Source: Clostridia bacterium (GTDB lineage: Bacteria > Bacillota > Clostridia > Christensenellales > CAG-314). Taken from it: DNA of 58,608 bases. Below are positions 25,077-37,761 of this stretch, piece after piece. The notes beneath the pieces are model-generated. The model was not told the origin of the DNA, made no database searches, and saw only the letters and a list, made by a program, of their open reading frames with translations. Numbering within the stretch: the stretch's first letter is position 1; the number at the start of each line of letters is the position of its first letter. The DNA is taken from assembly GCA_017457385.1 (NCBI GenBank), contig JAFTHO010000130.1, positions 1-58,608 of the forward strand, written 5' to 3'. The position numbers and the translations under genes are program-made.

Positions 25077-25174
25077 AGAACAGCGAGAACGAAGTGGAGC
25101 GTCACTCCTGTGCCTTGCCCACGACAAAACCAAAAGGCAAAAGAAAAAGCACAGTTTTCACTGTGCTTTATTCT

Positions 25175-25219
25175 TGGCGCGCCGTAAGAGATTCGAACTC
25201 CTGGCCTTTTGGTCCGTAG
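25175..25219 (-). repeat. attL: exact 45-bp copy of the tRNA-Arg 3' half
   Basis: Identical to 37685-37729, which runs from the anticodon loop to CCA. Confidence 0.95.
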
Positions 25220-25281
25220 AACTAAAGCCAGGGCGAAAAAACCACTAAAAACGGGTTTTTTTGATAAAAAATAAGGGTTTT

Positions 25282-25309
25282 AACAAAAAAATGCAATAGC
25301 ATACCCCAA
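25282..25309 (+). repeat. 28-bp direct repeat (left arm copy) shared with the int 3' end
   Basis: AACAAAAAAATGCAATAGCATACCCCAA is identical to 37548-37575. Confidence 0.9.
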
Positions 25310-25334
25310 ATATACCCACATATGCCTTGACTGT

Positions 25335-25365
25335 AAAAAATTAAAAGACCGGTTTTATCCGGTCT
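25335..25365 (-). terminator. Terminator at the left end of the element operon
   Basis: AGACCGG/CCGGTCT hairpin followed by a T-rich tract on the minus strand. Confidence 0.7.
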
Positions 25366-25608
25366 TTAATATTTATTAAACCATGTATATATTGTTTGAT
25401 TTTGCTCTTGCCAAAATTTTTCTCTTTCTGGTGTGACTTCATTAAAATCAATACGTTGTATCTGTTCCATTGAACGATATAACATTTCTCCCATTACATG
25501 AAAGGGGTCAGTTGTTTTACATTTATAAACATAAAGTTCATAATCATTAGTAAAAATACTATATTTTCTTACATAAAAAAAATAAGATTTAATCACAATA
25601 CACCTCAA
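25366..25608 (-). CDS. Hypothetical protein (about 76-80 aa), last gene of the element operon
   Basis: ORF directly downstream of rep. GAGGTG precedes an in-frame GTG at 25596, so the start is uncertain. Confidence 0.4.
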   Translation of the reverse strand: MRCIVIKSYFFYVRKYSIFTNDYELYVYKCKTTDPFHVMGEMLYRSMEQIQRIDFNEVTPEREKFWQEQNQTIYTWFNKY

Positions 25609-25651
25609 TAAATTGAAAAAGATAAATACTCAAGTTTATTATTATAAATAC

Positions 25652-26725
25652 TTATCTCCAAACATCCCCATATATTTCAAATTGTTCTTGTATGTATTCA
25701 GTTTCAATTTTTTCAACAAGGCCGTTAAGTTCACGCAGACGTTCAATTTTCTTTGCATCAGTTTCTTCCGGTTGTTGTTTTGAATAATCAACAATATATT
25801 CATCGCGCCAAACTTCTTTATAAAGTTTATCAAGTGTGCCTTCAGTACAACCACAGACTTGACAAACAAATTGCTTAATTTGGTCGTCAGTCATACTGTC
25901 AAGTTCTTGCTCAACTTCACGTGGTATTTTATAAAGAACGCCCCAGGTTGAAAGTTGTCGAGTTCCTTTAAGTCCAAAATACATTTGCTCCAGGTGTTCG
26001 GTTGTGTCATTAACGTAGTCAAACTTCGTCATATACTTTACAACTTCCATAATAGACTTTAACAACCTTTCTTCATAAGGCTTTTTTCTGTCACGTCTTT
26101 TGTTATATACCCCAAACGCTTCAAGATAAACAATACCTTCTTGCTCATCAGTTCCGTATTTACCACCACCAGCATATTCAACTGACTTCGCCCATGCAGG
26201 CGCAAGAAAATCATAATCATCTTTTGTATACTCACGCTTTAAAACCATTGTATGTAAGTGAGGATGCCATTTACCAGAATTTTCGCCAATCTTTACTTCT
26301 AAAGATTTCACGCCACCGGCATAACGTTTTTTAAATTCTTTGCGTGTTTGTTTATGGTCGTGTGTCATATAACGCCAGGCATCTTGCAGCACTTCCAAAC
26401 CTTGTGTCAATTTTTCCCTGTCACGTATTGTATAATTCACAAACACGATATAATTGCCACTATCAACCCAAGATTTAAGATATGGATAGAGTTTTGCCAA
26501 CCAAAGCATTGACTTTGCTTTGTTGCATATCGCACAATAACGGCTTTTACAACGGCTAAAACCCTTAAAGTGTTGTGTTCCACAATGATCGCATTTTATA
26601 GTGTTTATAAACTCACCACAACTTTGTATTTTCCATGCTTCAGCAGTTAGTCCTGCTTTTTCAAAAGTAGGAGCAATCAACTTGTTATTTATCTGATGAA
26701 GCGATTTAAATTTTTTATACTTCAT
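25652..26725 (-). CDS. rep: Rolling-circle replication initiator, pC194/pUB110-type (Rep_1-like HUH)
   Basis: Zinc-ribbon-like CDHCG..C..RYCAIC, HUH motif WHPHLHTMVL and Tyr motif MEVVKYMTKFDY. AGGAG lies upstream. Confidence 0.8.
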   Translation of the reverse strand: MKYKKFKSLHQINNKLIAPTFEKAGLTAEAWKIQSCGEFINTIKCDHCGTQHFKGFSRCKSRYCAICNKAKSMLWLAKLYPYLKSWVDSGNYIVFVNYTIRDREKLTQGLEVLQDAWRYMTHDHKQTRKEFKKRYAGGVKSLEVKIGENSGKWHPHLHTMVLKREYTKDDYDFLAPAWAKSVEYAGGGKYGTDEQEGIVYLEAFGVYNKRRDRKKPYEERLLKSIMEVVKYMTKFDYVNDTTEHLEQMYFGLKGTRQLSTWGVLYKIPREVEQELDSMTDDQIKQFVCQVCGCTEGTLDKLYKEVWRDEYIVDYSKQQPEETDAKKIERLRELNGLVEKIETEYIQEQFEIYGDVWR

Positions 26726-26862
26726 AAGCTTTTTGCTCCTTTTTTCTTTTTGTTTTTTTTTGAGTGTTTTTACCCCTTCGGGCAGCTATCGCTCAACCAA
26801 GTTTTGAGCTGGAAGTGACCCCACTTGTTTCTATATATTATAAATAAAAAACAATAGCACTT

Positions 26863-27006
26863 ATCCACAATTTGTAGTGTAGTTTACACGGTAGAAAATC
26901 AACGCTTTTGTGGCTATCAGCAGTTGCTTATTCGCCACAAAAGCTGTTTCGTTTCTATTACCAACTACCAAAAAAGCACATCCAAGCAAAGAAAGTAATT
27001 GTGGAT
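26863..27006. promoter_or_regulatory. Nested inverted repeats upstream of rep (candidate double-strand origin / control region)
   Basis: Outer inverted repeat ATCCACAATT (26863-26872) / AATTGTGGAT (26997-27006), which includes a perfect TTATCCACA at 26861-26869. Inner 11-bp inverted repeat GCTTTTGTGGC (26904-26914) / GCCACAAAAGC (26934-26944) with a 19-nt loop. Confidence 0.4.
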
Positions 27007-27077
27007 GCAGAGCTTGAAACAACGTCACGAGAGTTCTTTATGTATACCAGGGGCGTTGCTTTGCCCTGCTAAGCCTT

Positions 27078-27102
27078 CACCTGGCTATGCCAGGTGAAGA
27101 CT
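27078..27102. other. Strong hairpin CTTCACCTGGC/GCCAGGTGAAG just downstream of the NTPase gene
   Basis: 11-bp stem with a 3-nt loop and no T tract. Confidence 0.5.
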
Positions 27103-27125
27103 TGACGCAACGGATAAGGTTAAAA

Positions 27126-29423
27126 TCATTTTTTAGACTTCTTAGAAGCCTCATATTCCTCAACAAGCTTTTCTGCAATGTCACGTTTATTTAAATCATA
27201 AGCTTTGGCCAAAACTTTTTTGTAATCATATTTTTTACTTATCTCATCCAACATTGATTTAACTTTTGGTGTGAGAACAACTTTGTCTTCTGCCTGATTA
27301 GTTATCTTCAACAACTGCTGTATAAAGTAACTGTTTTGCGACTTAAATTCTTCCAACGTTGGTTTTGTGCTGCCATACGTTGGAACATCTTGCAAGCCTT
27401 TACCTTGTTTGCAGACTTCTGCAGTAAGGATCTCACTGTAACAATCAGTAGAAAACCTATCAGAGTAGATCTTTTTCTTACAAAGATAATAACGGTGTTC
27501 ATCAGTTCCACCTTCAAGTGTACCGGAACGAGTTTCTATCTTACTTCTGAAGTAACCGTATTTATCGTGTACTGCAGTATGCTTCAAATGAAAAAAAGAT
27601 ACAACTTTTTTCAGAAGATAAAGAGTTAAACAATTATCACTTCGTTTAGTTCTATAATCATAATAAAGTGAAATAAATTTACCAAAAACAACATTATGCA
27701 AAAGATCTTCTAAATAAAAGAACGGCATTGCCAAGTTTTCATCAGAAACATCTGCTATATTAAGCAAAGTGCAAAGTTCTTTTGCATCAGCACCCCAACT
27801 GGATGCACGTTGTTCGTCTGTGTAAAAACGGATAAAAGGATAATTGTCTATAGTTGCTTTATGACGGGACATCTTTAAACTGTAGTTAAATAAATCGTTC
27901 TTTTGATTGGCATCATCAGACATTTTTTCAATGCCCTGCAGTTCAACCTGGTTGCCACGTTCTTTGCCTATTTCAGTTATACCAACACAAGCAAATTCGA
28001 GCATGCTGGTGTGTTCTTCGTCAATACGTTTTCCAAGTCGCACGTCATCAAAATCAAGAATATGAGCATAATTACTATCATAGCGATGCTCAGGGGTCCG
28101 TTCAAAAAAATCCATATCCCAAACAGGAAAATGCCCTTCACAAACAAGCATGTTATCTGACCGAATAGAATAATTTGCTAATGCCAAACTCGAAGGAACA
28201 GTATAAACAAAGTAAAGTTGGGCATACGTTTCCAACACGTCAAAAATGCTTTCACTTACAAGCTCTGTTTCTCTAAAAGTGGGATAAATGGTATAATCAT
28301 AACCAAACAAATTATCTGCAGAAGGGTTACTATAAAAACGTTGTTCTTGTTTTCTTACCCAAAGTCTAGCAGACGTAAGATTGAAAACAAGACCTGAATC
28401 AATAGCACAATCAAAGTCGTTTTCAAATTGAGCCCATGGAAATAAAGGGAACTTCATATCATTATTTTGGATGAGTTCAAAAGCCTTTTGCCTGAAGATA
28501 ACTTCCTGTGACAGCATTATATCTGTCAACGTCGTTGTCTTTTTGCTACCCATAGAACCGGTTATCAAAATAACCAGGTTAAGTTTGTTGTTTATAAAAT
28601 TCTTATTACGTTGTTCAAACCTTCTAAGCCTTTTTAAACCTATATACCGGCGTATTTTAGATAAAAGAATATAACCTAAAACAAACCAGGCCCACGTTGG
28701 CAAAGAAGAAAACATGAGAGCAACGTCCATTGACAACTTGTACACCTGCAAATAAACAGTTGCAACGTCAAAAGAAACAATAAAATAAATCATCCAGGCA
28801 ACAAGCTCCATTGCCATAGAAAAAACGTTTAAGTTGATCAGCCAAAGGCAGAGCCATAATCTTACGTAGATCTTACGTTGGTTTAAAAAATCAAAAAAAC
28901 CTTTTAATTTTAGCCCTGCCGGCTGATATTTTTTTTCTAATTTACGCCATTTGACAAGAGCCTTGCTGTCCTCATTAACATCATTTTTACTTTCACTCAA
29001 AAGCATATGTTTGACAACGAAATACAAACCTACAAGTGGTGGCGCAAAAAGCATAATTAAAATGCTTGCCTGGTAAATAAATTTAACAACAATGCCAAGA
29101 TAATTGCCAAAATTACTGGCATTAAAAAACTGTGGCCAAAAGGCTTGCATTTTAAGCTCGAAGTCAGACCAGAGCAAAGGAAAAGCTGTATCTATATTGA
29201 CGTAAGATGAAACATTAGCAACGCCTGGCTGCATAACATTATCACTGTTTGTAAAGATGCAAAAAAGTTCAACAAAATAATAGGCAACAGACTGAAGAAC
29301 GTGCCAGACTGTTTCAAAGAAACGCAACCACGCTGTAGAAAACAAAAACAGCGTAGATAACGTTAACAATGTTATGCCGATTGACAACCAATCTTTTTTT
29401 GTGAGCTTTTTAAAAATTGTCAT
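27126..29423 (-). CDS. Polytopic-membrane P-loop NTPase (765 aa), family unassigned
   Basis: About 280 aa with roughly 6-7 hydrophobic helices, then Walker A LITGSMGSKKTT, a Walker-B-like ACVGITEIG, and a lysine-rich C-terminus. Confidence 0.8.
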   Translation of the reverse strand: MTIFKKLTKKDWLSIGITLLTLSTLFLFSTAWLRFFETVWHVLQSVAYYFVELFCIFTNSDNVMQPGVANVSSYVNIDTAFPLLWSDFELKMQAFWPQFFNASNFGNYLGIVVKFIYQASILIMLFAPPLVGLYFVVKHMLLSESKNDVNEDSKALVKWRKLEKKYQPAGLKLKGFFDFLNQRKIYVRLWLCLWLINLNVFSMAMELVAWMIYFIVSFDVATVYLQVYKLSMDVALMFSSLPTWAWFVLGYILLSKIRRYIGLKRLRRFEQRNKNFINNKLNLVILITGSMGSKKTTTLTDIMLSQEVIFRQKAFELIQNNDMKFPLFPWAQFENDFDCAIDSGLVFNLTSARLWVRKQEQRFYSNPSADNLFGYDYTIYPTFRETELVSESIFDVLETYAQLYFVYTVPSSLALANYSIRSDNMLVCEGHFPVWDMDFFERTPEHRYDSNYAHILDFDDVRLGKRIDEEHTSMLEFACVGITEIGKERGNQVELQGIEKMSDDANQKNDLFNYSLKMSRHKATIDNYPFIRFYTDEQRASSWGADAKELCTLLNIADVSDENLAMPFFYLEDLLHNVVFGKFISLYYDYRTKRSDNCLTLYLLKKVVSFFHLKHTAVHDKYGYFRSKIETRSGTLEGGTDEHRYYLCKKKIYSDRFSTDCYSEILTAEVCKQGKGLQDVPTYGSTKPTLEEFKSQNSYFIQQLLKITNQAEDKVVLTPKVKSMLDEISKKYDYKKVLAKAYDLNKRDIAEKLVEEYEASKKSKK

Positions 29424-29518
29424 ACTGTATTAAAAGTAAAAACTATATAGCCAACCAGCAAAAAAATAAATACAGAAGCTATAAGTTTAAATATATTTTT
29501 TAACGTAGTCTTTTTCAT
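29420..29518 (-). CDS. 32-aa single-TM peptide (MKKTTLKNIFKLIASVFIFLLVGYIVFTFNTV)
   Basis: Found by manual translation. Its stop overlaps the NTPase start (ATGA). It is too short for the ORF track. Confidence 0.4.
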   Translation of the reverse strand: MKKTTLKNIFKLIASVFIFLLVGYIVFTFNTV

Positions 29519-29631
29519 TGTTTGACTTTTTATTTATTTTGGTTATAATAGTTAATGAAGAAACGCAACTTGTAAAAAGTTGATGAATGGGCGGCTTAAG
29601 CTTAGCCCGTGGGGCGTTTCTTTTTTTTATG

Positions 29632-29955
29632 TCATTTTTTAGGATATTTCCAAGATAAAGGCTTGTCTTCAAAATTAGATATTTTATCGTGACGGACTCT
29701 TTTTGCAATATACATTGCATTCGGGTCTTTTTTATTTGGATTAGGATAAATCATTTCATTTGAATGTCTGCCATCTTTTTCGCGATGCATAACCTTTCTA
29801 TAACAATATTCGTCAACAGATTGTTCGCCTACAATAAGAGCAGGATGATTATTTTTTCTATAATACCTAAAATGAGGATAAGGGGCTTTCAAATGAATAG
29901 ATTTTTTAGCCGGTTTAACTACCGGCTTTTTTGTTTTCTTTTTTACTGCCATCAT
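29632..29955 (-). CDS. Basic 107-aa hypothetical protein
   Basis: Its start overlaps the stop of the upstream gene. The N-terminus is K-rich. Confidence 0.6.
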   Translation of the reverse strand: MMAVKKKTKKPVVKPAKKSIHLKAPYPHFRYYRKNNHPALIVGEQSVDEYCYRKVMHREKDGRHSNEMIYPNPNKKDPNAMYIAKRVRHDKISNFEDKPLSWKYPKK

Positions 29956-31295
29956 TTACCCCTTAAGAAATCAACTACCCAACGAAGAACGTTCCAACCA
30001 AGAAAAATGAGAACAGCACCCAAGACCCACAAGCCAATAGTTTTAAGTTTGTCAAAAAAAGAATCTACTTCAGGAATTGTAACGTTAATAATAGGACCAT
30101 CAGGATTGTCAGGGACAGGTTCGCCAGTATCTGGATCAACTGGTTTTGATTGCATATTGTCAACGACACCCAAATTGTAATAATCGCCATCAGTAACAAA
30201 AGCAAGACGTAAAATTGAAACGTCAGCTATAATAGTAAATTCCTTTTCAGTCACAACAAATGTATTAGTGTTATAAGTGCCAGTATTATAGTCAGTCAAA
30301 GCAAAACGCAAAACCCAATCGTGTGAACGAATTTTGTCTTCAGACTCCTTGCTAAGATTACTTTGAACTTCAACGTCAAAAATACCAGCCTCATACATTT
30401 GACCAATTTGTTCATTTTCCAAAAAAGCATCGGATTTTTCTATGCTGTTCCATTGATAGGTTGAAGAAAACCAACCGTCACCAGTATACGTCACGTCAAT
30501 GTCTGATTTAAGATAAACCGTATCCGGTGTAACCTCGCCAAATTGAACAATATCACCAGTGCTACCACCTTTGTGACTGTAATAAGTCTGATATGTATAA
30601 TAAACATCTGCTTCAAGCAGGTTTTTCATTTTTTTATCGGTAGAAAAAGAAACAAAATGCACGTCACAAGCCGTTGCAGAAGCAAAAATGCCACCGTCAG
30701 GATAACGAATAAAGCCAACGTATTTATCTGTAACAGTTATAACTTCAACGTCTTTAACAGACAAAGAAAGGGTTGAGCCACTACCTGTAAAAGTGAATGC
30801 TTTGCCTACTTTAAATGGGGTCATAGAAACAGTGTTGCCATTGTCAAGTTCTTCATCAAAATCAGAGATAAAACGTCTTGAAATAGAAGAAATTTCGTAA
30901 TAACGTGTTTCATCAGAACTAACGGTCAAACCATCGACTTTATATTTAAAAAAGCCGTCATGAGAATTAATCAAGGTCAAACCATAAACTTTATAATCAA
31001 CGTCTTTCTCAACCAAAGAAATATTAATGGAAGCTGCACGCAAAATTGCAGGCGAATAAACGTAAACAAAAAGTTCGTTGTTTACACTTTCTGCAACTGT
31101 CAAAAGTTCCAATTTGCCATTGGTATAATCAATAGGATATTTAGATGCATCAAACATTGGATCTTCAGCAAGGTCGTCCATAACGTTTGTATATTGAATA
31201 GTATCGTTTGCTGTTACAGCAAAGGCTGTGGCAGTTCCGCCACAGCCGAAGCATAGCAACAAAACGAAAATCAAAATAAGACTAATTTTTTTCAT
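29952..31295 (-). CDS. Lipoprotein-like secreted protein with C-terminal TM anchor (447 aa)
   Basis: Signal sequence MKKISLILIFVLLLCFGCGG and a C-terminal helix IGLWVLGAVLIFLGWNVLRWVV followed by RGK. Confidence 0.75.
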   Translation of the reverse strand: MKKISLILIFVLLLCFGCGGTATAFAVTANDTIQYTNVMDDLAEDPMFDASKYPIDYTNGKLELLTVAESVNNELFVYVYSPAILRAASINISLVEKDVDYKVYGLTLINSHDGFFKYKVDGLTVSSDETRYYEISSISRRFISDFDEELDNGNTVSMTPFKVGKAFTFTGSGSTLSLSVKDVEVITVTDKYVGFIRYPDGGIFASATACDVHFVSFSTDKKMKNLLEADVYYTYQTYYSHKGGSTGDIVQFGEVTPDTVYLKSDIDVTYTGDGWFSSTYQWNSIEKSDAFLENEQIGQMYEAGIFDVEVQSNLSKESEDKIRSHDWVLRFALTDYNTGTYNTNTFVVTEKEFTIIADVSILRLAFVTDGDYYNLGVVDNMQSKPVDPDTGEPVPDNPDGPIINVTIPEVDSFFDKLKTIGLWVLGAVLIFLGWNVLRWVVDFLRGK

Positions 31296-31438
31296 CGTTT
31301 TTTCCGTTTATTATTTTTAGTTGTAAAAACTCCTGTCAAAGCACAGATAATCACAAAGGCCAAACCTATGCCAAGGCCAAGAACGATTGTGTCAAAATCT
31401 TCCTCAGATACAACTTGTCCAAGCTCGGTTTTAACCAA
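31292..31438 (-). CDS. Coat-like mini-protein: acidic N-terminus, one TM, basic C-terminus (about 48 aa)
   Basis: Manual translation gives ..VKTELGQVVSEEDFDTIVLGLGIGLAFVIICALTGVFTTKNNKRKKR. The stop overlaps the next start (ATGA). There is no ATG or GTG; TTG at 31438 is the best candidate start. Confidence 0.3.
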   Translation of the reverse strand: MVKTELGQVVSEEDFDTIVLGLGIGLAFVIICALTGVFTTKNNKRKKR

Positions 31439-31461
31439 GGTGATTGTTGTATCTTCAGTTA

Positions 31462-33480
31462 TTAAAAATTTTCGTCACCTTCCGGTTCATAAAGAAAATT
31501 ATTAATGCCAGCAACAGTAAGTGCATCCAAGATACTTGTGCCATAGTCTACCTGTGCGTATGCGTATACTTCACCATCAACGATAAATGTGATATTACAT
31601 CTGATGATTTCATATCTTGCAGTAATTGTTGTTGTTTCGTTAATTTCTTGATCTACGTATTGAGTACCGTCAGCAAGGAACCAGCCAACAAAGTTGTAAC
31701 CTGTTTTTGCTGGTGCATTAGGGATTTCTGCAGCTTCACCAATAATTACATAATCAGATTGAACTGTGTTGCCATCCGCAATGAAAGTAACAAGTTTTTC
31801 ATTGAGTTTCCAAACAGCATAGAGGTTGATAGTTGAACCATTATTTTCAGTTACACCGTATACTTCTTCTTGATCTGCGTATTCGACGGCACCATTTGCT
31901 GCAGTTGCCCAGCCAAGGAAGATATAGTGTTCACGTGTGAATTTGTTTGCTGACAATTTAGTGTCAATATCATATTGAACACCTGTCTGATCTGCCATTG
32001 TGCCAGTACCGCCATTTGCATGGAACTTGAAATTATAAGTTACGGTTTCCCAAACTGCTTTGAGTGTTACAGTGCCATTTGCAGTTGCAGTAAGATTGTT
32101 TGCACTTGCACCATCTGTCAAATAGCTTGTTGTGCCATTGATAGACCATTTTACAAAATACATACCTTTATTTACGAAAGTATTAGCTGGCAATGTTTTA
32201 GCCTGGTCATATGTCATTGCAACGTCTGCCATAGTACCAGTACCGCCCATACCATCAAATTTGATCGTATAAGTGTTAGCCTGCCATACAGCATAGTAAG
32301 TGATTGTGCCACCGTCAGTTGCAGTCAATTTTGAAACAGATGCTTTATCTGTTTTTGCTACTGAACCTGTTGCTGAAGTTGCCCAACCAGTGAATGTATA
32401 ACCTGTCTTTGTAAAGGCATTTGCAGTCAAGTTTGCAGTCTGGCTATATTTCATAGACATATCTGCCATTGTTCCAGTACCGCCATTTTTGTCGAACTTG
32501 ATTGTGTAGTCATGTTCTTCCCAAACGGCATACAAAGTTACTGAGCCATTATCTGTTGCAGTCAAGTTTTTAACAGATTGTTTATCTGTATAAGTTGCAG
32601 TAGTTGCAGTTGATGACGTACTCCAACCTTTAAAAGTATAACCTGTGCGTGTGAGTGTGTTTTGTGTCAAAGCTTTAGCAACGTCATAAGTCATTGACAT
32701 TGTTGCAATGCTACCAGAACCACCATTATTGTTGAATACAATGCTGTATGTATGAGCACGGAAACCAGCATACAAAGTAACGTCACCAATTACTGTGCTA
32801 TCTGTATAAGGTTGAGTGCAAGCTTCATCTTTAAACCAACCTGTAAATGTATAACCTGTCTTTATTGGAGCGTCGGGCAAGCCATAAGTGACAATAGAAA
32901 TCTTTTTGCTTGTGCCAGAAGTATACGTCTGGTTGATCTCATAGTCACCGCTTTCAGTTTCATATACGTCAGTAAATGTTATAGACACAGTGTATTCTGT
33001 ATTAGCTTTCAAAGATCCAGCTTCATACAAGTCAACAAGATCAACGACAAATTCATTTGGATTCCAACCGTTAGCCAAGAAAGAATGTTCTACTGCATAG
33101 TTAGAGCCTGATGCAACAAATTGGACTTTAATAGTTCCAACAGCGCCATCTTGCCAACTATACTTAGAACTAAAATGCAATCTGCCTGTTGTTCCAGAAT
33201 TATCTGTAAAATTAAGATAATTTGAACCTTGACCTGTCAACGTTGCAGGTGTATAAGATGCATATGGTGTAGCTTCATTGCCAGACATATAAAAAGGCAT
33301 TACAGCTAAAACAGAAGTCTCAACAACAGAATCACTTACTGAAGGTGGAGTAACAACGTTGTCAGACTCATCCTCTTTAACGTTTGAGATCTTGACAAGC
33401 AAAACCAACGTTGAAAGAGAAAAGACTATTGCCAAAACCCAAGCAATAATTAAATGAATTTTTTGTTTTTTATAAGTCAT
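31462..33480 (-). CDS. Signal-anchored surface protein with about 7 Listeria-Bacteroides (Flg_new-type) repeats
   Basis: N-terminal TM helix. Repeated G(Y)TF(T/K)GW...(V/I)TLYA(V)W units. GAGGAG RBS. Confidence 0.85.
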   Translation of the reverse strand: MTYKKQKIHLIIAWVLAIVFSLSTLVLLVKISNVKEDESDNVVTPPSVSDSVVETSVLAVMPFYMSGNEATPYASYTPATLTGQGSNYLNFTDNSGTTGRLHFSSKYSWQDGAVGTIKVQFVASGSNYAVEHSFLANGWNPNEFVVDLVDLYEAGSLKANTEYTVSITFTDVYETESGDYEINQTYTSGTSKKISIVTYGLPDAPIKTGYTFTGWFKDEACTQPYTDSTVIGDVTLYAGFRAHTYSIVFNNNGGSGSIATMSMTYDVAKALTQNTLTRTGYTFKGWSTSSTATTATYTDKQSVKNLTATDNGSVTLYAVWEEHDYTIKFDKNGGTGTMADMSMKYSQTANLTANAFTKTGYTFTGWATSATGSVAKTDKASVSKLTATDGGTITYYAVWQANTYTIKFDGMGGTGTMADVAMTYDQAKTLPANTFVNKGMYFVKWSINGTTSYLTDGASANNLTATANGTVTLKAVWETVTYNFKFHANGGTGTMADQTGVQYDIDTKLSANKFTREHYIFLGWATAANGAVEYADQEEVYGVTENNGSTINLYAVWKLNEKLVTFIADGNTVQSDYVIIGEAAEIPNAPAKTGYNFVGWFLADGTQYVDQEINETTTITARYEIIRCNITFIVDGEVYAYAQVDYGTSILDALTVAGINNFLYEPEGDENF

Positions 33481-33528
33481 AAAATCTCCTCAAAAAAAGA
33501 ACTCAAACTAAAAGTTTGAGTTTAAAAA

Positions 33529-33759
33529 TTATTCAGTTGCTTCGTCTGCAGGTTCTGGCATGTCGCAATCTTCACAAACACCATCTACATAGTCATGATT
33601 GCATTCATGTTCACATTCGATGCAAACACCATCTACGTAATCATGTTCGCAAAAGAGTGATGGAACAAACGTTTTAAGTGCCAACATTGACGTTGACAAA
33701 AAGATTGCAATAATAAGAACCCAAGAAAGAACCCTTTTGAATTTAGCTTTTTTAGCCAT
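33529..33759 (-). CDS. 76-aa TM protein with Cys/Asp-rich tail (CEHDYVDGVC twice)
   Basis: AAGGAG RBS, an N-terminal basic segment plus a TM helix, and a duplicated HDYVDGVC motif. Confidence 0.65.
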   Translation of the reverse strand: MAKKAKFKRVLSWVLIIAIFLSTSMLALKTFVPSLFCEHDYVDGVCIECEHECNHDYVDGVCEDCDMPEPADEATE

Positions 33760-33854
33760 TTAAAAAATCTCCTTAAAAAAAATATAGTTGTAAAAGTGCA
33801 AGTGAGTATCAAAAAAAATATTAACTAAAGTTTGAGAAACACCCCCTTTATCAA

Positions 33855-33977
33855 TCAAGAAATAACAAAGGCTACAAGTAAAGCATCGTTGGCAACCTTG
33901 TTATATTTAGTTTTACGTCTGTAAGGCTTTTTTCTTTTTGAATAATAATTGGGTTTAGTTCGTTTACGTTTTGGCAT
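33855..33977 (-). CDS. 40-aa extremely basic peptide (MPKRKRTKPNYYSKRKKPYRRKTKYNKVANDALLVAFVIS)
   Basis: Found by manual translation. AAGGA lies 6 nt upstream of the ATG. It is too short for the ORF track. Confidence 0.35.
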   Translation of the reverse strand: MPKRKRTKPNYYSKRKKPYRRKTKYNKVANDALLVAFVIS

Positions 33978-34006
33978 AAAATATCCTTATCCCTAAAAGG
34001 GAATGC

Positions 34007-34072
34007 AGTTTTACAGGGATGACTGCCAACCCGAGTGAGGTAGTGTAGTTTTACAAGGATGACTGCCAACCC
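34007..34072 (+). repeat. Two 26-bp direct repeats AGTTTTACA(G/A)GGATGACTGCCAACCC, period 40 bp
   Basis: 34007-34032 and 34047-34072, one mismatch. Confidence 0.85.
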
Positions 34073-34073
34073 A

Positions 34074-34433
34074 ATGGTGGTGGTGTTTATTTTAAGTCTT
34101 ACCACCAACAGACTAAGAACAAAGGAGTTCAAAATGCATAACGCAATGGAGTGGTAATGTTTAACGTGCTAGACCACTAATGCACAATCGGTATAATTGC
34201 TGAAACCACTCAAGGTTTTGGGGTGGTAATTCTTTTCCGGACGGCTACCACGAATCCGTCTTACACGACCAAGATTAAACTCTGATTGTCGAGACTGAGA
34301 GTGTGAGAGATTTAAAATACATTTTTCGGAGGAAAACCTAAAATGTAAATAATTCAAAAAAGAAACTTTGACAAAAAGTCAGGGTTTAATGGTGGTGGTC
34401 TTTAATTTAAAGTCCTACCACCAACGGACTAAC
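34074..34433. repeat. Hairpin-repeat field: two related 44-45-bp GGTGGTGGT...TACCACCAAC...GACTAA units plus two further (A/G)GTGGT.../...ACCAC hairpins
   Basis: Related units at 34074-34117 and 34389-34433, about 85 percent identical. Additional hairpins near 34150-34178 and 34221-34251. Confidence 0.7.
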
Positions 34434-34474
34434 CAAAAATCAGATAAAAAGGAAGTGTATGGATTTAAAAACAA

Positions 34475-34750
34475 TCACTTTTTAGCGTGTCTGATATTCA
34501 CCCATTTTGGAACGTCAACATTGTTTTTGCGATCAAATTCAGTTGTAACGTCCAACAAAACTTCTTCACCGGGAACAGCTTTAAAAGCCCCAACGTCTGT
34601 GCGACATTTTCTCAAACGTGGTTCAGGCATAAAACCTTCTGCATCTGGTGCAAAAACTTCTGCAACGTAATGGTTTTCGCCAGTATACGTTTTGTTTTGT
34701 TCAGAAGTGAATGAATAAGCTTTACTTGTAAGATAGATATACTTTGACAT
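34475..34750 (-). CDS. Hypothetical 91-aa protein
   Basis: AAGGAG RBS. Third gene of the leftward operon. Confidence 0.6.
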   Translation of the reverse strand: MSKYIYLTSKAYSFTSEQNKTYTGENHYVAEVFAPDAEGFMPEPRLRKCRTDVGAFKAVPGEEVLLDVTTEFDRKNNVDVPKWVNIRHAKK

Positions 34751-34753
34751 AAG

Positions 34754-35038
34754 TTACTCCTTTGCCCTTTTGGGCTTTTTATATTTGTTCCGGTTTAAGC
34801 ATCCGGTGTGCTTTTTAAATTTTTTGATCAAGTTGTTTTCACAACTTCGATAAGCCTGCAGATAAGATACCGTTGACGTAAAGTGTGGGCAATCTACAAA
34901 CGTAACGTTAAATAAACGTTGTGGAAAAGTTTGTTGCCAAAGATCAGCAGGTTTTGCAGTTTCAAATCTACGTTGCACGTTGCAATTTGCCCTGATACAG
35001 AACATACAAGGTGCACAAACAACAACATCTGCACTCAT
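34754..35038 (-). CDS. Hypothetical 94-aa Cys-rich, C-terminally basic protein
   Basis: Its start overlaps the stop of the upstream gene. Confidence 0.5.
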   Translation of the reverse strand: MSADVVVCAPCMFCIRANCNVQRRFETAKPADLWQQTFPQRLFNVTFVDCPHFTSTVSYLQAYRSCENNLIKKFKKHTGCLNRNKYKKPKRAKE

Positions 35039-35247
35039 AATGCAATTGGTGTAGAAGACATTTGTCTGACGCCAAATATCTTATTGAGAATATAGTCATA
35101 CTCTTCAATTACAACTGTTCTGTTATTGCCTATAACAATAACGCTATAAAGGCCTTTTCTTGTTTTTACTTCTTCAACGGCATAAATGCTGTTGATTGTC
35201 ACAAAAAAGCGTGTGCCATCTTCTTTTGTTAATTGCATTGCGTTCAT
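35035..35247 (-). CDS. Hypothetical 70-aa protein, first gene of the leftward operon
   Basis: GGGGAGAG RBS. Divergent from the XRE gene. Confidence 0.55.
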   Translation of the reverse strand: MNAMQLTKEDGTRFFVTINSIYAVEEVKTRKGLYSVIVIGNNRTVVIEEYDYILNKIFGVRQMSSTPIAL

Positions 35248-35291
35248 TTCTTCACTCTCCCCTTTGTTCAGTAATTTTGATAATTAAAAAA

Positions 35292-35370
35292 ATACGATAA
35301 TATCGTATTTATAAAAATATTATAAACGGTAATATCGTATTGTCAAGACAAAAAAACAATTTTATCGTAT
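35292..35370. promoter_or_regulatory. Operator array in the divergent control region
   Basis: Palindrome ATACGATA-A-TATCGTAT (35292-35308), plus further TATCGTAT half-sites at 35333-35340 and 35363-35370, about 30-32 bp apart. Confidence 0.6.
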
Positions 35371-35394
35371 TTTTTTTTAAAAGGAGAACTAAAA

Positions 35395-35712
35395 ATGCTA
35401 AAAATCAAAGATGCTCGTAAAGAAAAAGGATTAAAACAATATCAACTTGCAGAAAAAGTAAATGTATCAGTTCAAACAATTAGTGGTTATGAAACTGGTT
35501 ATGCTAAACCACCAATTGAAATACTTATAAAAATTGCAGATGTATTAGAAACAACAACAGATTATCTTTTAGGTAGAGAATCGGAAATAGGAATTATAAA
35601 TGCAAATGCAAACCTTGCTTCCGATGAAGTGCAACTACTCGATTTATATCGTCAAATGAACTTTCAAGACAAAAACCAACTCATTGGCTTTGCTAAAGCT
35701 TTGGTTTACTAA
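35395..35712 (+). CDS. XRE-family HTH transcriptional regulator (repressor-like)
   Basis: LKQYQLAEKVNVSVQTISGYETG...LIKIADVLETTTDYLLGRE. AAGGAG RBS. Confidence 0.85.
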   Translation: MLKIKDARKEKGLKQYQLAEKVNVSVQTISGYETGYAKPPIEILIKIADVLETTTDYLLGRESEIGIINANANLASDEVQLLDLYRQMNFQDKNQLIGFAKALVY

Positions 35713-35726
35713 AAGGAGATAAAAAG

Positions 35727-36374
35727 ATGGCAGAAAAATTAGTATGTCCAATTTGTGGCGAACCAACAAGAGTGTACATGGGCAATGCACGTAAAGACAG
35801 ATTATGTGGCAAACATGCTGATGAACTTAAAGCCGGCAAGCTTGTTTTGGATGAAAAAGGAAACTTTGTATCAACAGAAAAAGAAGAAAGCAATCAAAAT
35901 GAATTAACTTGCATTATTTGCGGACAAATATCAAATGGATATCATTTTTGCAAAGACTGCTACAAAAAATATAAAGACAAATCAGTTGATTTAAGAATAA
36001 AAAATTGTACTGAAACAACAATTTTAGATGAATATGGAAACAGAAAATATACTTGCGAAGATGGAAGAAAAGTAAGAAGTCTACAAGAAAAAGTAATCAG
36101 CGACTTTTTATTCAATAATAAAATTAGAGCAATTTATGAAAAAGAAGTTTATTACACAGAAAATGATGAAGATAAAGTATTGCATCCAGACTTTTACCTG
36201 CCAGACTATGATATCTATATCGAACACTACGGTATGACAGGCAAAAAATACGAACAAATGAAGGAATACAAAGAAAGAATATATAAAGAAAACAACTTAA
36301 AATTAGTTGTAACCTGTCCGGAAGATCTGTCAAACATTGCAGCAAAATTAAAACCAATATTAAAAATTAATTAG
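35727..36374 (+). CDS. Zinc-ribbon protein with C-terminal PD-(D/E)xK-like nuclease motif
   Basis: CPICG...C and CIICG...CKDC ribbons, then SLQEKVISDFL...HPDFYLPDYDIYIEHYG. Confidence 0.6.
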   Translation: MAEKLVCPICGEPTRVYMGNARKDRLCGKHADELKAGKLVLDEKGNFVSTEKEESNQNELTCIICGQISNGYHFCKDCYKKYKDKSVDLRIKNCTETTILDEYGNRKYTCEDGRKVRSLQEKVISDFLFNNKIRAIYEKEVYYTENDEDKVLHPDFYLPDYDIYIEHYGMTGKKYEQMKEYKERIYKENNLKLVVTCPEDLSNIAAKLKPILKIN

Positions 36375-36417
36375 ACATTATATAATCTTTTCACCATGCA
36401 ACAGGAGGTTTTAACGT

Positions 36418-36543
36418 ATGGAATGGAAAGATTATGTAACAGCACTAACTCAAATTGACGGTCTTTTATGGCAAGTCATCGGCGCCATGAAAGCCGAACA
36501 AGCAAAAAAAATGCCCGGGAACAAACCAGGGCAAATGACGTAA
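36418..36543 (+). CDS. 41-aa ORF immediately upstream of int (possible Xis/RDF-like small protein)
   Basis: Found by manual translation (MEWKDYVTALTQIDGLLWQVIGAMKAEQAKKMPGNKPGQMT). AGGAGG lies 9 nt upstream of the ATG. Confidence 0.35.
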   Translation: MEWKDYVTALTQIDGLLWQVIGAMKAEQAKKMPGNKPGQMT

Positions 36544-36587
36544 CAAAAACAGTCAAGGCATTATCTTTACAACAACAAGGAGAAGAT

Positions 36588-37565
36588 ATGCCAAAAATCA
36601 AATTGAAAGCCTGTAGCATAAGACAAAGACCAAACGGTCTTTTTGAAGTCCGTTTTATACACGAAGGTCAAAGAATATCGGTATATGAACGTGAAAAAAT
36701 TGCTTGCATAAAAAAAGCAAACAAAAAAATCAAAGAAATGCAAACTTTGCCAGCCATTGAAAAAACTGTCTATTTTGACAGTTGGTTGCAAACCTGGTTG
36801 GAAACGTACAAAAAACCGAACGTATCAGAAGGGCAATTTAAAGCTTTAGAAGTTTGCTTGAGACTGCATCTGATGCCAAATATTCAACGTAAAGAGATCT
36901 CAAAAGTAACAGAACTAGAATGTCAGAACATACTTAACAAAATAAATGGTATAAGAACAAAAAAAGATGCCTTCAGCATTTTAAAAAATGCTTTTGACAA
37001 AGCTGTTGCAATGAACTACGTTGCAAAATCGCCAATGCAATTTTTGAAAAGACCAAAATACAAAAAACAAAAAGGAACTCCATTGAGCAAGAAAGAGCAA
37101 GCACAATTTTTAATTGACGTTCAGCACGTTACAGAAAAACAAGCTTTTTTGTTTTTGCTTTACTCCGGACTACGTCGTGGAGAACTATTAAGCTTGAAAT
37201 GGTCTGACGTGAAAGAAAACACGTTGCACGTGCCGGGAACAAAAACAGAAACGTCAAACAGAGTTATACCTTTGTTTGACAAACTAAAGGCAATACTAAA
37301 CGAAATGCCTAAAAATAACGAATTTATATTTAACCACGTAAAAGAAACGTTAACAAAAAAATTCAAAAAGCTGTGTCCGGAACATAAACTGCACGACTTG
37401 CGCCACACGTTTGCAACAAACTGTTTAGAAATGGGGATATCGATGAAAGTGGTTCAACAATGGTTAGGCCATGCAGACTTTGGAACAACTGCAAATATCT
37501 ATTCAACAGTGCTGGAAAAGTACAATAAAGAGCAAGCCGAAGTGTATAACAAAAAAATGCAATAG
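36588..37565 (+). CDS. int: Tyrosine site-specific integrase of the tRNA-Arg element
   Basis: LRRGELLSL, HDLRHTFATNCL and WLGHADFGTTANIY motifs. The ATG at 36588 follows AAGGAGAAG, and I reject the upstream extension of the track ORF. Confidence 0.9.
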   Translation: MPKIKLKACSIRQRPNGLFEVRFIHEGQRISVYEREKIACIKKANKKIKEMQTLPAIEKTVYFDSWLQTWLETYKKPNVSEGQFKALEVCLRLHLMPNIQRKEISKVTELECQNILNKINGIRTKKDAFSILKNAFDKAVAMNYVAKSPMQFLKRPKYKKQKGTPLSKKEQAQFLIDVQHVTEKQAFLFLLYSGLRRGELLSLKWSDVKENTLHVPGTKTETSNRVIPLFDKLKAILNEMPKNNEFIFNHVKETLTKKFKKLCPEHKLHDLRHTFATNCLEMGISMKVVQQWLGHADFGTTANIYSTVLEKYNKEQAEVYNKKMQ

Positions 37566-37575
37566 CATACCCCAA
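37548..37575 (+). repeat. 28-bp direct repeat (right arm copy) overlapping the int stop
   Basis: Identical to 25282-25309. Confidence 0.9.
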
Positions 37576-37684
37576 TTTATACCCCAATTCAAAAAAAATA
37601 AAAAAAATAACAGGCTGTTTTTGCCTGTTATTTTATGTAAAAGTGCAACAAAAAAGGCTTGTTTTCGTTCAAACAAGCCTAAAT

Positions 37685-37729
37685 TGGCGCGCCGTAAGAG
37701 ATTCGAACTCCTGGCCTTTTGGTCCGTAG
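37685..37729 (-). repeat. attR: 45-bp core within the intact tRNA-Arg
   Basis: Identical to 25175-25219. Identity ends at the 5' edge of the anticodon loop. Confidence 0.95.
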
Positions 37730-37761
37730 CCAAACGCTCTATCCAGCTGAGCTAACGGCGC
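37685..37761 (-). tRNA. tRNA-Arg (anticodon ACG), CCA encoded
   Basis: Manual cloverleaf: GCGCCGT/ACGGCGC acceptor, GCTC/GAGC D stem, TTTGG-CTACGGA-CCAAA anticodon arm, AGGAG-TTCGAAT-CTCTT T arm, G-CCA. Confidence 0.9.

Follow-up and report, generated by a model that had tools for sequence, protein, structure and literature searches.

A large family of membrane-anchored P-loop ATPases in small rolling-circle elements of gut Clostridia: a candidate morphogenesis motor

The 58,608-nt contig JAFTHO010000130.1 of a Clostridia bacterium (GenBank assembly GCA_017457385.1), called the window here, contains a 12.5-kb element that is integrated in a tRNA-Arg gene and bounded by 46-nt perfect direct repeats. 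The largest and most conserved gene of this element, and of every related element examined, encodes a protein in which a polytopic membrane domain precedes a P-loop domain (termed the ATPase below). What would a small element use such a protein for? We favor, with moderate confidence and as much doubt as belief, a morphogenesis or egress motor that plays the role of inovirus pI in an unrecognized lineage of Clostridia elements. This reading is preferred because the constant gene block around the ATPase, the phage-type replication initiator (Rep), the polylysogeny, and the IS30-like integrase of these elements most resemble the biology of the Tubulavirales and plasmaviruses.

The ATPase is identical in sequence to a deposited hypothetical protein from a Clostridia metagenome-assembled genome. 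Its parts are as follows.

27126..29423, minus strand: complete open reading frame (ORF) of the membrane-anchored P-loop ATPase, 765 amino acids (aa), ATG start
28584..29423, minus strand: polytopic membrane domain, residues 1-280, with four family-conserved hydrophobic stretches and 4-7 passes
27324..28583, minus strand: ATPase domain, residues 281-700, with large insertions (~180 aa from Walker A to Walker B), then a helical hairpin and β-hairpin region
28533..28568, minus strand: Walker A/P-loop LITGSMGSKKTT, residues 286-297, pattern G-x-M-G-x-x-K295-T, K295 invariant
27951..27992, minus strand: Walker B-like strand and following motif ACVGITEIGKERGN, residues 478-491, hhhh[T/S]-E484, E484 and N491 invariant
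27807..27875, minus strand: K517..R520-H521 helix and β4 ending D536-E-Q538-R539, with putative sensor-1 Gln and arginine finger, R539 invariant
27129..27323, minus strand: K/E-rich helical tail, residues 701-765, in closest relatives only and of low model confidence

A word-indexed search found at least 1,818 homologues of the ATPase, and an exhaustive hidden Markov model (HMM) search of 1.84 billion representatives at E ≤1e-3 defined a family of 1,257 clusters at 50% identity. That more than 1,800 homologues conserve the sequence excludes a chance ORF. Of the 150 best-scoring representatives listed, most have lengths of 700-780 aa and match end to end, showing that the two-domain architecture is fixed. 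No homologue listed carries a precomputed Pfam domain, and the few that are named are called hypothetical protein. Literature searches, the coverage of which is incomplete so that an earlier description is possible, did not uncover any account of the family; to the extent that this literature and the curated libraries can show, it is undescribed. Relatives are encoded at 457 loci in the GTDB species genomes. The best 80 of these 457 lie nearly all in gut Clostridia (Christensenellaceae, Gallimonas, Oscillospiraceae, and Lachnospiraceae), and some of the genomes in this set carry two or three copies of the gene. A few family members occur in bins labeled Muribaculaceae, Bacteroidaceae, and Parasutterella, on contigs of 6-26 kb; these are probably mis-binned.

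The initial annotation of this locus, made from the letters of the sequence alone, had described a membrane domain of ~280 aa followed by a P-loop domain, and this division (residues 1-280 and 281-700) proved to hold family-wide. It had also placed a Walker A motif near residue 290 and a Walker-B-like hhhhTE ~190 aa further on. Both were confirmed in an alignment of 125 homologues with 29-58% identity to the query. The Walker A motif, LITGSMGSKKTT, contains one of four residues that are invariant in all 125 sequences (K295, E484, N491, and R539), and the Walker-B-like motif, ACVGITEIGKERGN, has Thr or Ser at position 483 in nearly all of them. At this position, usually occupied in Walker B by Asp, Thr is found in 93 sequences, Ser in 25, and Asp in three. 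T296 (118 sequences) and Q538 (122 sequences) are among the residues conserved in at least 90% of the alignment, together with D459, R462, K487, E488, R489, N506, N509, D510, K517, R520, H521, and D536. The K/E-rich tail reported in the initial annotation is present (K and E make up 32% of residues 701-765) but is confined to the closest relatives.

Hydrophobic stretches lie at residues 12-33, 107-142, 187-227, and 236-254 in the query and at 7-33, 108-143, 185-224, and 229-259 in the mean profile of the 125 homologues. The 6-7 hydrophobic helices first proposed are plausible but not fixed, the number of passes being 4-7; the long helices are kinked and may represent either single passes or hairpins. 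K and R are abundant in the loops at 143-186 and 255-283, and the 58-104 loop is acidic. From the positive-inside rule, therefore, both termini and the ATPase domain would face the cytoplasm. The membrane domain also contains conserved polar residues (R34, N199, Q226, K229, and D233).

With 31 close sequences as input, AlphaFold left the ATPase core unmodeled (predicted local distance difference test score, pLDDT, of 62); with 125 diverse sequences it gave a model with a pLDDT of 92.6 and a predicted template modeling score (pTM) of 0.85. Nine helices are found within residues 1-280 of this model. A linker helix (243-280) leads into β1 (284-288), the P-loop, and a 30-residue helix, and a mixed insertion of ~150 aa precedes the Walker B strand (478-482). 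K517, R520, and H521 lie on one helix, β4 (531-537) ends in D-E-Q-R, and β5 spans residues 551-559. The C-terminal part is made up of a long helical hairpin, a β-hairpin, and a loosely modeled tail.

The whole chain of the model was compared with the PDB and BFVD using Foldseek. The PDB returned nothing significant, the best matches being to HerA and to the STIV2 packaging NTPase B204 at E 0.4-1. From BFVD an unnamed 269-aa viral protein was matched at E 9e-4 with a probability of 1.0 and a TM-score of 0.55 (target); the best Foldseek match is A0A894JLK1. Weak BFVD matches were to Zot of Inoviridae sp. ctDDr4 (E 0.42, probability 0.66, TM-score 0.42 for the target), adenovirus IVa2, an A32-like ATPase, and others. 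The motif residues looked for in the FtsK-HerA superfamily, K295, E484, Q538 (in 122 of 125 sequences), and R539, are present, but the top fold matches other than the 269-aa viral protein have E ≥0.4. Jointly the fold neighbors point weakly to an additional-strand catalytic glutamate (ASCE) ATPase of the FtsK-HerA type, no single match being decisive.

At the sequence level the ATPase appears to be no member of the FtsK/SpoIIIE, type IV coupling protein (T4CP), or Zot families. The full protein matched no Pfam family at E ≤1, with no winged helix-turn-helix (wHTH) family in the scan, and no PHROGs family, nor did its C-terminal 494 aa match PHROGs at E ≤10. No match was obtained in NCBIfam or PADLOC. 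Searches of the PDB sequences with the single protein and with the 125-sequence profile gave only weak, unrelated matches above the 0.001 cut-off, the best of them a trypanosome ATP-synthase subunit (E 0.01), and the family profile retrieved no FtsK, TrwB, VirB4, HerA, or Zot chain at E ≤10. A strong full-length match to a characterized family would, according to the initial annotation, have marked the protein as a conventional DNA translocase; no match, full or partial, was found to FtsK/SpoIIIE, VirD4/TraG, Zot, or any other curated family.

For a more direct comparison by hhalign, profiles were built from Ff-type pI, from diverse Zot proteins including the stand-alone Zot of gut inoviruses, and from the plasmavirus L2 ORF3 family. 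The targets were M13 pI alone, Ff-type pI, diverse Zot, the L2 ORF3 family, SpV1 ORF2, and HRPV-1 VP8, with insertions kept or trimmed. Against Ff pI and diverse Zot, 17-30 P-loop columns were aligned, with or without the insertions. The method itself works, as shown by two positive controls that span 122-149 columns: L2 ORF3 matched the diverse Zot profile at 94.9% (E 4e-8, 149 columns) and SpV1 ORF2 did so at 94.2% (E 1e-7). The L2 ORF3 match looks like an unreported link between the Plasmaviridae and the assembly ATPases of filamentous phages; according to the ICTV profile, plasmaviruses share only their integrase with other viruses (PMC12662186). A by-eye alignment of "RH...Q" motifs in the ATPase and Zot is unproven, since hhalign aligned the P-loop only. 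The Walker B of the family also departs from the hhhhDE of Zot, with Thr or Ser at 483 before the invariant E484.

The architecture brings forward the main rival to a morphogenesis motor, namely that the ATPase is the DNA-transfer motor of an integrative mobilizable or conjugative element, similar to a coupling protein or to TraB/FtsK. It would pump the DNA, nicked by Rep as the relaxase, through the membrane into a recipient cell, working alone or docked on a helper type IV secretion system (T4SS). We think this unlikely. FtsK/SpoIIIE, Streptomyces TraB, VirD4, and TcpA are built of an N-terminal membrane domain and an ASCE ATPase after it, and the N-terminal domain of the ATPase is polytopic as in FtsK/SpoIIIE/TraB. 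Furthermore, D-E-Q538-R539-[P/A] at the end of β4 resembles the sensor/arginine motif "TQRP" of FtsK, a comparison that we take as a lead only. Nevertheless, Pfam detected no FtsK_SpoIIIE (PF01580), T4SS-DNA_transf, TrwB, or TraG-D_C domain in the ATPase at E ≤1, the PDB sequences yielded no FtsK, TrwB, or VirB4 chain at E ≤10, and neither FtsK nor a T4CP was among the best 50 Foldseek matches.

The gene content of the element bears on the same question. Its plus strand carries an XRE-type helix-turn-helix gene, a CxxC/PD-(D/E)xK nuclease-like gene, and a tyrosine integrase gene. The minus strand begins with several ORFs of 70-94 aa, a noncoding gap of ~500 nt, a 76-aa protein with a single transmembrane (TM) segment, and a 672-aa protein, and continues with a 48-aa ORF, a 447-aa protein, a 107-aa protein, the ATPase, a hairpin, Rep_1, and an 80-aa ORF. 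The ATPase had been presented as the only NTPase of the element; in agreement with this, a six-frame scan of 25220-37684 revealed no Walker A motif except its own. The principal features are listed here.

25174..25219, no strand: attL, perfect direct repeat of 46 nt that copies the 3' end of tRNA-Arg
25652..26725, minus strand: Rep_1 rolling-circle replication initiator with N-terminal zinc ribbon, identified by Pfam
27071..27103, no strand: hairpin with a 15-bp stem just 3' of the ATPase stop codon, a possible terminator between the ATPase gene and rep
29632..29955, minus strand: very basic protein of 107 aa, directly upstream of the ATPase gene
29952..31295, minus strand: protein of 447 aa with a hydrophobic, signal-peptide-like N terminus and a C-terminal TM anchor
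31292..31438, minus strand: ORF of 48 aa with an acidic N terminus, one TM segment, and a basic KNNKRKKR tail
31462..33480, minus strand: N-terminally anchored protein of 672 aa with Listeria-Bacteroides (Flg_new) repeats, putatively an adhesin or a protein that binds a receptor
35727-36374, plus strand: CxxC zinc-ribbon and PD-(D/E)xK-like protein of 215 aa (PADLOC PDC-S69, E 4e-17; HEAT_CxxC_PD-DEXK, E 4e-12)
36468..37565, plus strand: tyrosine integrase of the element
37684..37729, no strand: attR, 46-nt perfect direct repeat, within tRNA-Arg(ACG) at 37685-37761 on the minus strand

Thirty-eight loci with at least 8 kb on both sides of the ATPase gene were used to examine synteny. The initial annotation had suggested looking for co-occurrence with Rep_1 and integrase genes, and such co-occurrence was found, with a rolling-circle replication (RCR) Rep in 36 of the 38 loci and a recognized integrase or DDE enzyme in 16. 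The Rep is mostly of the G2P type rather than Rep_1: PF23343 accounts for 30 of the 36 Rep loci and lies 33-2060 nt downstream of the ATPase gene. In 35 of the 38 loci a homologue of the 447-aa secreted protein is encoded 1.5-3.5 kb upstream of the ATPase gene, and in most related elements a very basic protein of 107-174 aa is encoded directly upstream of it (L008 9022-9501; L001 6169-6564; L015 6279-6623). This basic protein may be a DNA-binding or DNA-condensing partner; one relative of the 107-aa protein has a weak PemK/MazF-like match (E 0.009).

Close relatives share this layout, their integrase being a tyrosine enzyme and their Rep of the G2P type. In a clade at 40% identity the integrase is instead an IS30-like DDE enzyme, again with a G2P-type Rep (PF23343, E 6e-11), and a third type of element has a Rep_OBD+S3H Rep. 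Thus, the Rep modules (Rep_1, G2P, and Rep_OBD+S3H) and the integrases (tyrosine and IS30-like DDE) interchange around a constant block of secreted proteins, small TM proteins, the basic protein, and the membrane ATPase. In the elements examined the ATPase is nearly always full length and always in the same place in this core block. Inoviruses and plectroviruses likewise have exchangeable replication and integration modules (PMC6813254, PMC8295915). The ~14-kb element with the IS30-like DDE integrase and G2P-type Rep (L008-L011) occupies different chromosomal sites in different assemblies, which suggests transposition-type integration as in plectrovirus SpV1, where an IS30-like integrase is also present. 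One SPAdes contig (L174; ERZ773150 NODE_2334) of 14,576 nt has a 55-nt terminal overlap that indicates a 14,521-bp circle, carrying the ATPase, an rve/DDE integrase, and a Rep_OBD+S3H Rep and no Pfam-recognizable host gene. A 30-nt terminal overlap in L015 was rejected as a sign of circularity, as it is a tRNA-3'-end-like att repeat and no proof of an episome.

Some of these observations would suit a DNA-transfer motor. Actinomycete integrative and conjugative elements (AICEs) and streptococcal integrative mobilizable elements are also integrated in tRNA genes and also combine an integrase with an RCR initiator, the surface proteins with Flg_new repeats could act as mating adhesins, and the family is almost absent from viral databases (below). 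It is, however, absent from plasmids, being found in none of the 72,556 of PLSDB, and neither VirB4, VirB6, nor a cell-wall hydrolase was detectable by Pfam in the elements examined. The commonest Rep, PF23343, is of the phage G2P/phiX-A type, which is not known as a relaxase, and the conserved partners of the ATPase (secreted, membrane-anchored, and small TM proteins) resemble components of a virion or envelope.

Part of the published description of inovirus-like elements, namely short single-TM proteins (30-90 aa), short genes with mostly unknown functions, and an RCR Rep (PMC6813254), also applies to the element in the window. It has single-TM ORFs of 48 and 76 aa, many ORFs of 40-107 aa on one strand, and Rep_1, for which relatives have a G2P-type Rep; the pI-like ATPase marker of the same description was not detected by HMM. 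The 48-aa ORF resembles an inovirus major coat protein but could equally be a detached membrane anchor. The noncoding gap at 33980-34470, in which a 40-nt sequence is repeated in tandem (33998-34077, 83% identity) beside small inverted repeats, is a candidate origin or packaging region. A search of the element for a pC194-type nick site gave chance-level matches only.

A second perfect repeat of 29 nt lies inside the element (25281-25309 and 37547-37575). Just outside attL there are two pairs of degenerate direct repeats (24806-24846/25040-25080, 95%; 24963-25022/25099-25158, 87%), the starts of which resemble the att/tRNA 3' end, and these may be scars of earlier integrations.

The envelope-like proteins invite a narrower version of the morphogenesis reading, in which the ATPase belongs to an enveloped or pleomorphic budding virus, similar to a plasmavirus or pleolipovirus, and loads nucleoprotein into buds studded with the spike-like 447-aa and 672-aa proteins. 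We consider this sub-case improbable. Plasmavirus L2 is of the same size (12 kb) and has an integrase, large repeat proteins with a signal peptide and C-terminal TM segment, and in ORF3 an N-terminal TM region with a Zot-like domain, and the small, very basic protein whose gene adjoins that of the ATPase could compact the DNA into a core. The host taxa listed above are presumably walled monoderm Clostridia, however, for which enveloped budding is hard to envisage, and no homology between the family and L2 ORF3 was detectable beyond the P-loop. Related Acholeplasma proviruses sit in tRNA genes, but L2 replicates from DnaA-box origins (PMC12662186), whereas the present elements have RCR Reps. 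A preprint on Dehalococcoides IME1 proposes budding, possibly filamentous, double-stranded DNA viruses with pI-like ATPases (10.64898/2026.09.15.751708), which lends the budding account some support.

The ATPase might also do something apart from moving the DNA of the element, as a transporter, a defense or abortive-infection NTPase, or superinfection-exclusion cargo. The lack of a family assignment leaves room for such a role, and the element does carry a likely defense-type nuclease elsewhere: the 215-aa CxxC/PD-(D/E)xK protein, homologues of which occur in 9 of 80 related loci, is judging by its matches possibly a defense or superinfection-exclusion cargo. Cargo genes vary between relatives, whereas the ATPase is invariant in synteny, nearly always full length, and the most conserved protein, and it has no PADLOC match. 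Because of the invariant synteny we regard such an unrelated function as very improbable.

We therefore return to a morphogenesis or egress motor, of small rolling-circle mobile elements that are probably non-tailed viruses. The initial annotation had called the protein the likely export, assembly, or transfer motor of its element, and the conserved module with secreted and membrane proteins and Rep fits this description, although the function is deduced from context and motifs. In the mechanism that we infer, which extends to ATPase activity, oligomeric state, membrane topology, DNA as the cargo, and the viral nature of the element, the N-terminal ~280 residues would anchor the protein in the cytoplasmic membrane and would probably contribute to a conduit. 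The C-terminal domain, in the cytoplasm, would be a divergent ASCE P-loop ATPase with K295/T296, a catalytic E484, a sensor Q538, and an arginine finger R539, presumably acting as a ring oligomer. ATP hydrolysis would most likely be coupled to the assembly and export of the element DNA as a non-tailed virion, filamentous or pleomorphic. This role would equal that of pI/Zot in inoviruses, of SpV1 ORF2 in plectroviruses, and presumably of L2 ORF3 in plasmaviruses. Its likely partners are the secreted and anchored proteins encoded nearby, together with the small TM protein and the basic, DNA-binding-like one.

Several observations count against a motor of this kind. Neither Pfam nor PHROGs supported homology to Zot/pI (PF05707), hhalign aligned the family to all the reference ATPases through the P-loop only, and the fold matches to Zot, HerA, and B204 reach only E 0.4-1. 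Polytopic membrane domains occur more typically in FtsK/SpoIIIE-like translocases than in pI. Homology identified no capsid or coat protein in the elements, and no jelly-roll capsid gene was detectable in them by Pfam or PHROGs; moreover, in some relatives (L002 and L012) the TM segment and basic tail of the 48-aa ORF form the C terminus of the upstream large protein. The elements, at 11-14.5 kb, are larger than the classified inoviruses of 5.5-10.6 kb (PMC8491893). The family is found in only 2 of the 2.9 million contigs of IMG/VR and on one unverified GenBank gut contig labeled "Bacteriophage sp.".

A wider proposal, which we put forward tentatively and believe rather less than we doubt, is that the family is the hallmark morphogenesis ATPase of a large, unrecognized lineage of rolling-circle viruses that lack tails, are released chronically, and have gut Clostridia, in particular the Christensenellaceae, as hosts. 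Such viruses would be the counterparts, in walled hosts, of plectroviruses and plasmaviruses, with a motor that has its own polytopic conduit and has diverged beyond recognition from Zot, and inovirus detection keyed to pI/Zot would miss the lineage. A family of 1,257 clusters and 457 loci lies at the core of 10-15-kb elements that are common in gut Clostridia of humans and animals, often with several copies in one genome, yet has no curated entry. If the ATPase is a virion-export motor, its gene would serve as a marker of a hidden class of gut viruses and as an entry point to the way in which non-tailed phages cross the Gram-positive envelope. Should it prove to be a DNA-transfer motor, a new minimal system of conjugation or mobilization in Clostridia would be defined by it. 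The Thr/Ser-for-Asp substitution in Walker B and the fused polytopic domain would in addition make it an unusual ASCE ATPase.

Comparison with known systems begins with Zot/pI of the Tubulavirales (PF05707), which likewise combine a membrane anchor with a cytoplasmic P-loop ATPase, serve as the sole or principal NTPase of small elements with an RCR Rep, and are encoded in a structural/assembly block adjoining rep. In gut inoviruses zot is directly upstream of rep; here the ATPase gene follows the structural-like genes and directly precedes rep. The order VIII-III-VI-I of Ff/M13 is paralleled by a small TM protein, a large anchored protein, a small protein, and the ATPase. By eye, and as a lead only, the Walker A, the Walker B Glu, an Asn ~7 residues further on, an "RH" helix, and a β-strand ending in Gln are also shared with Zot. 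Nevertheless, the ATPase is more than twice the size of Zot/pI, with a 280-aa membrane domain of 4-7 passes in place of 1-2 TM segments, ~180 aa between Walker A and Walker B, [T/S]-E for D-E, and an extra C-terminal region of ~150 aa.

The initial annotation had stated that the order of domains is opposite to that of pI/Zot. This is correct for the Ff phages, but in plectrovirus SpV1-R8A2B ORF2 and plasmavirus L2 ORF3, both of which match the Zot profile (above), TM segments precede the ATPase as they do here, so the domain order is not itself new. SpV1 ORF2 (NC_001365, 7492..232 across the origin, 337 aa, code 4) has two TM helices at its N terminus, after which come GKLGTGKT, ILFDES, and ARHFG..FTAQ, and L2 ORF3 (L13696, 2278-3216, 312 aa) has an N-terminal hydrophobic region and then a P-loop. 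Two other proteins of these viruses were considered as counterparts on account of their length and rejected: L2 ORF13 (738 aa) is an Ig-repeat envelope protein without a P-loop, and SpV1 ORF1 (715 aa) has neither a P-loop nor any similarity.

With FtsK/SpoIIIE and Streptomyces TraB the ATPase shares the polytopic N-terminal membrane domain, the ASCE motor that follows it, and the Q-R-P-like motif at the end of β4, and TraB is also found in integrated elements with an integrase and an RCR Rep. It differs from these proteins in having no PF01580 match, no γ/wHTH domain recognizable by Pfam, and a different Walker B. VirD4, TrwB, and TcpA resemble it in their N-terminal TM segments, cytoplasmic FtsK-HerA-like ATPase, mobile-element setting, and adjoining nicking enzyme; the ATPase, by contrast, has no T4CP match in Pfam, no T4SS partner genes in its elements, and no presence on plasmids. 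HerA and the packaging ATPases A32, B204, and IVa2 are its best, though weak, fold neighbors, with an ASCE core, a Walker B Glu, and an arginine finger, but these are soluble proteins with no membrane domain. Machines of this kind are already known: ASCE ATPases that are anchored in the membrane and belong to the assembly or transfer modules of small mobile elements. What sets this family apart is its large polytopic domain, its [T/S]-E Walker B, its large insertions, and its size and host range.

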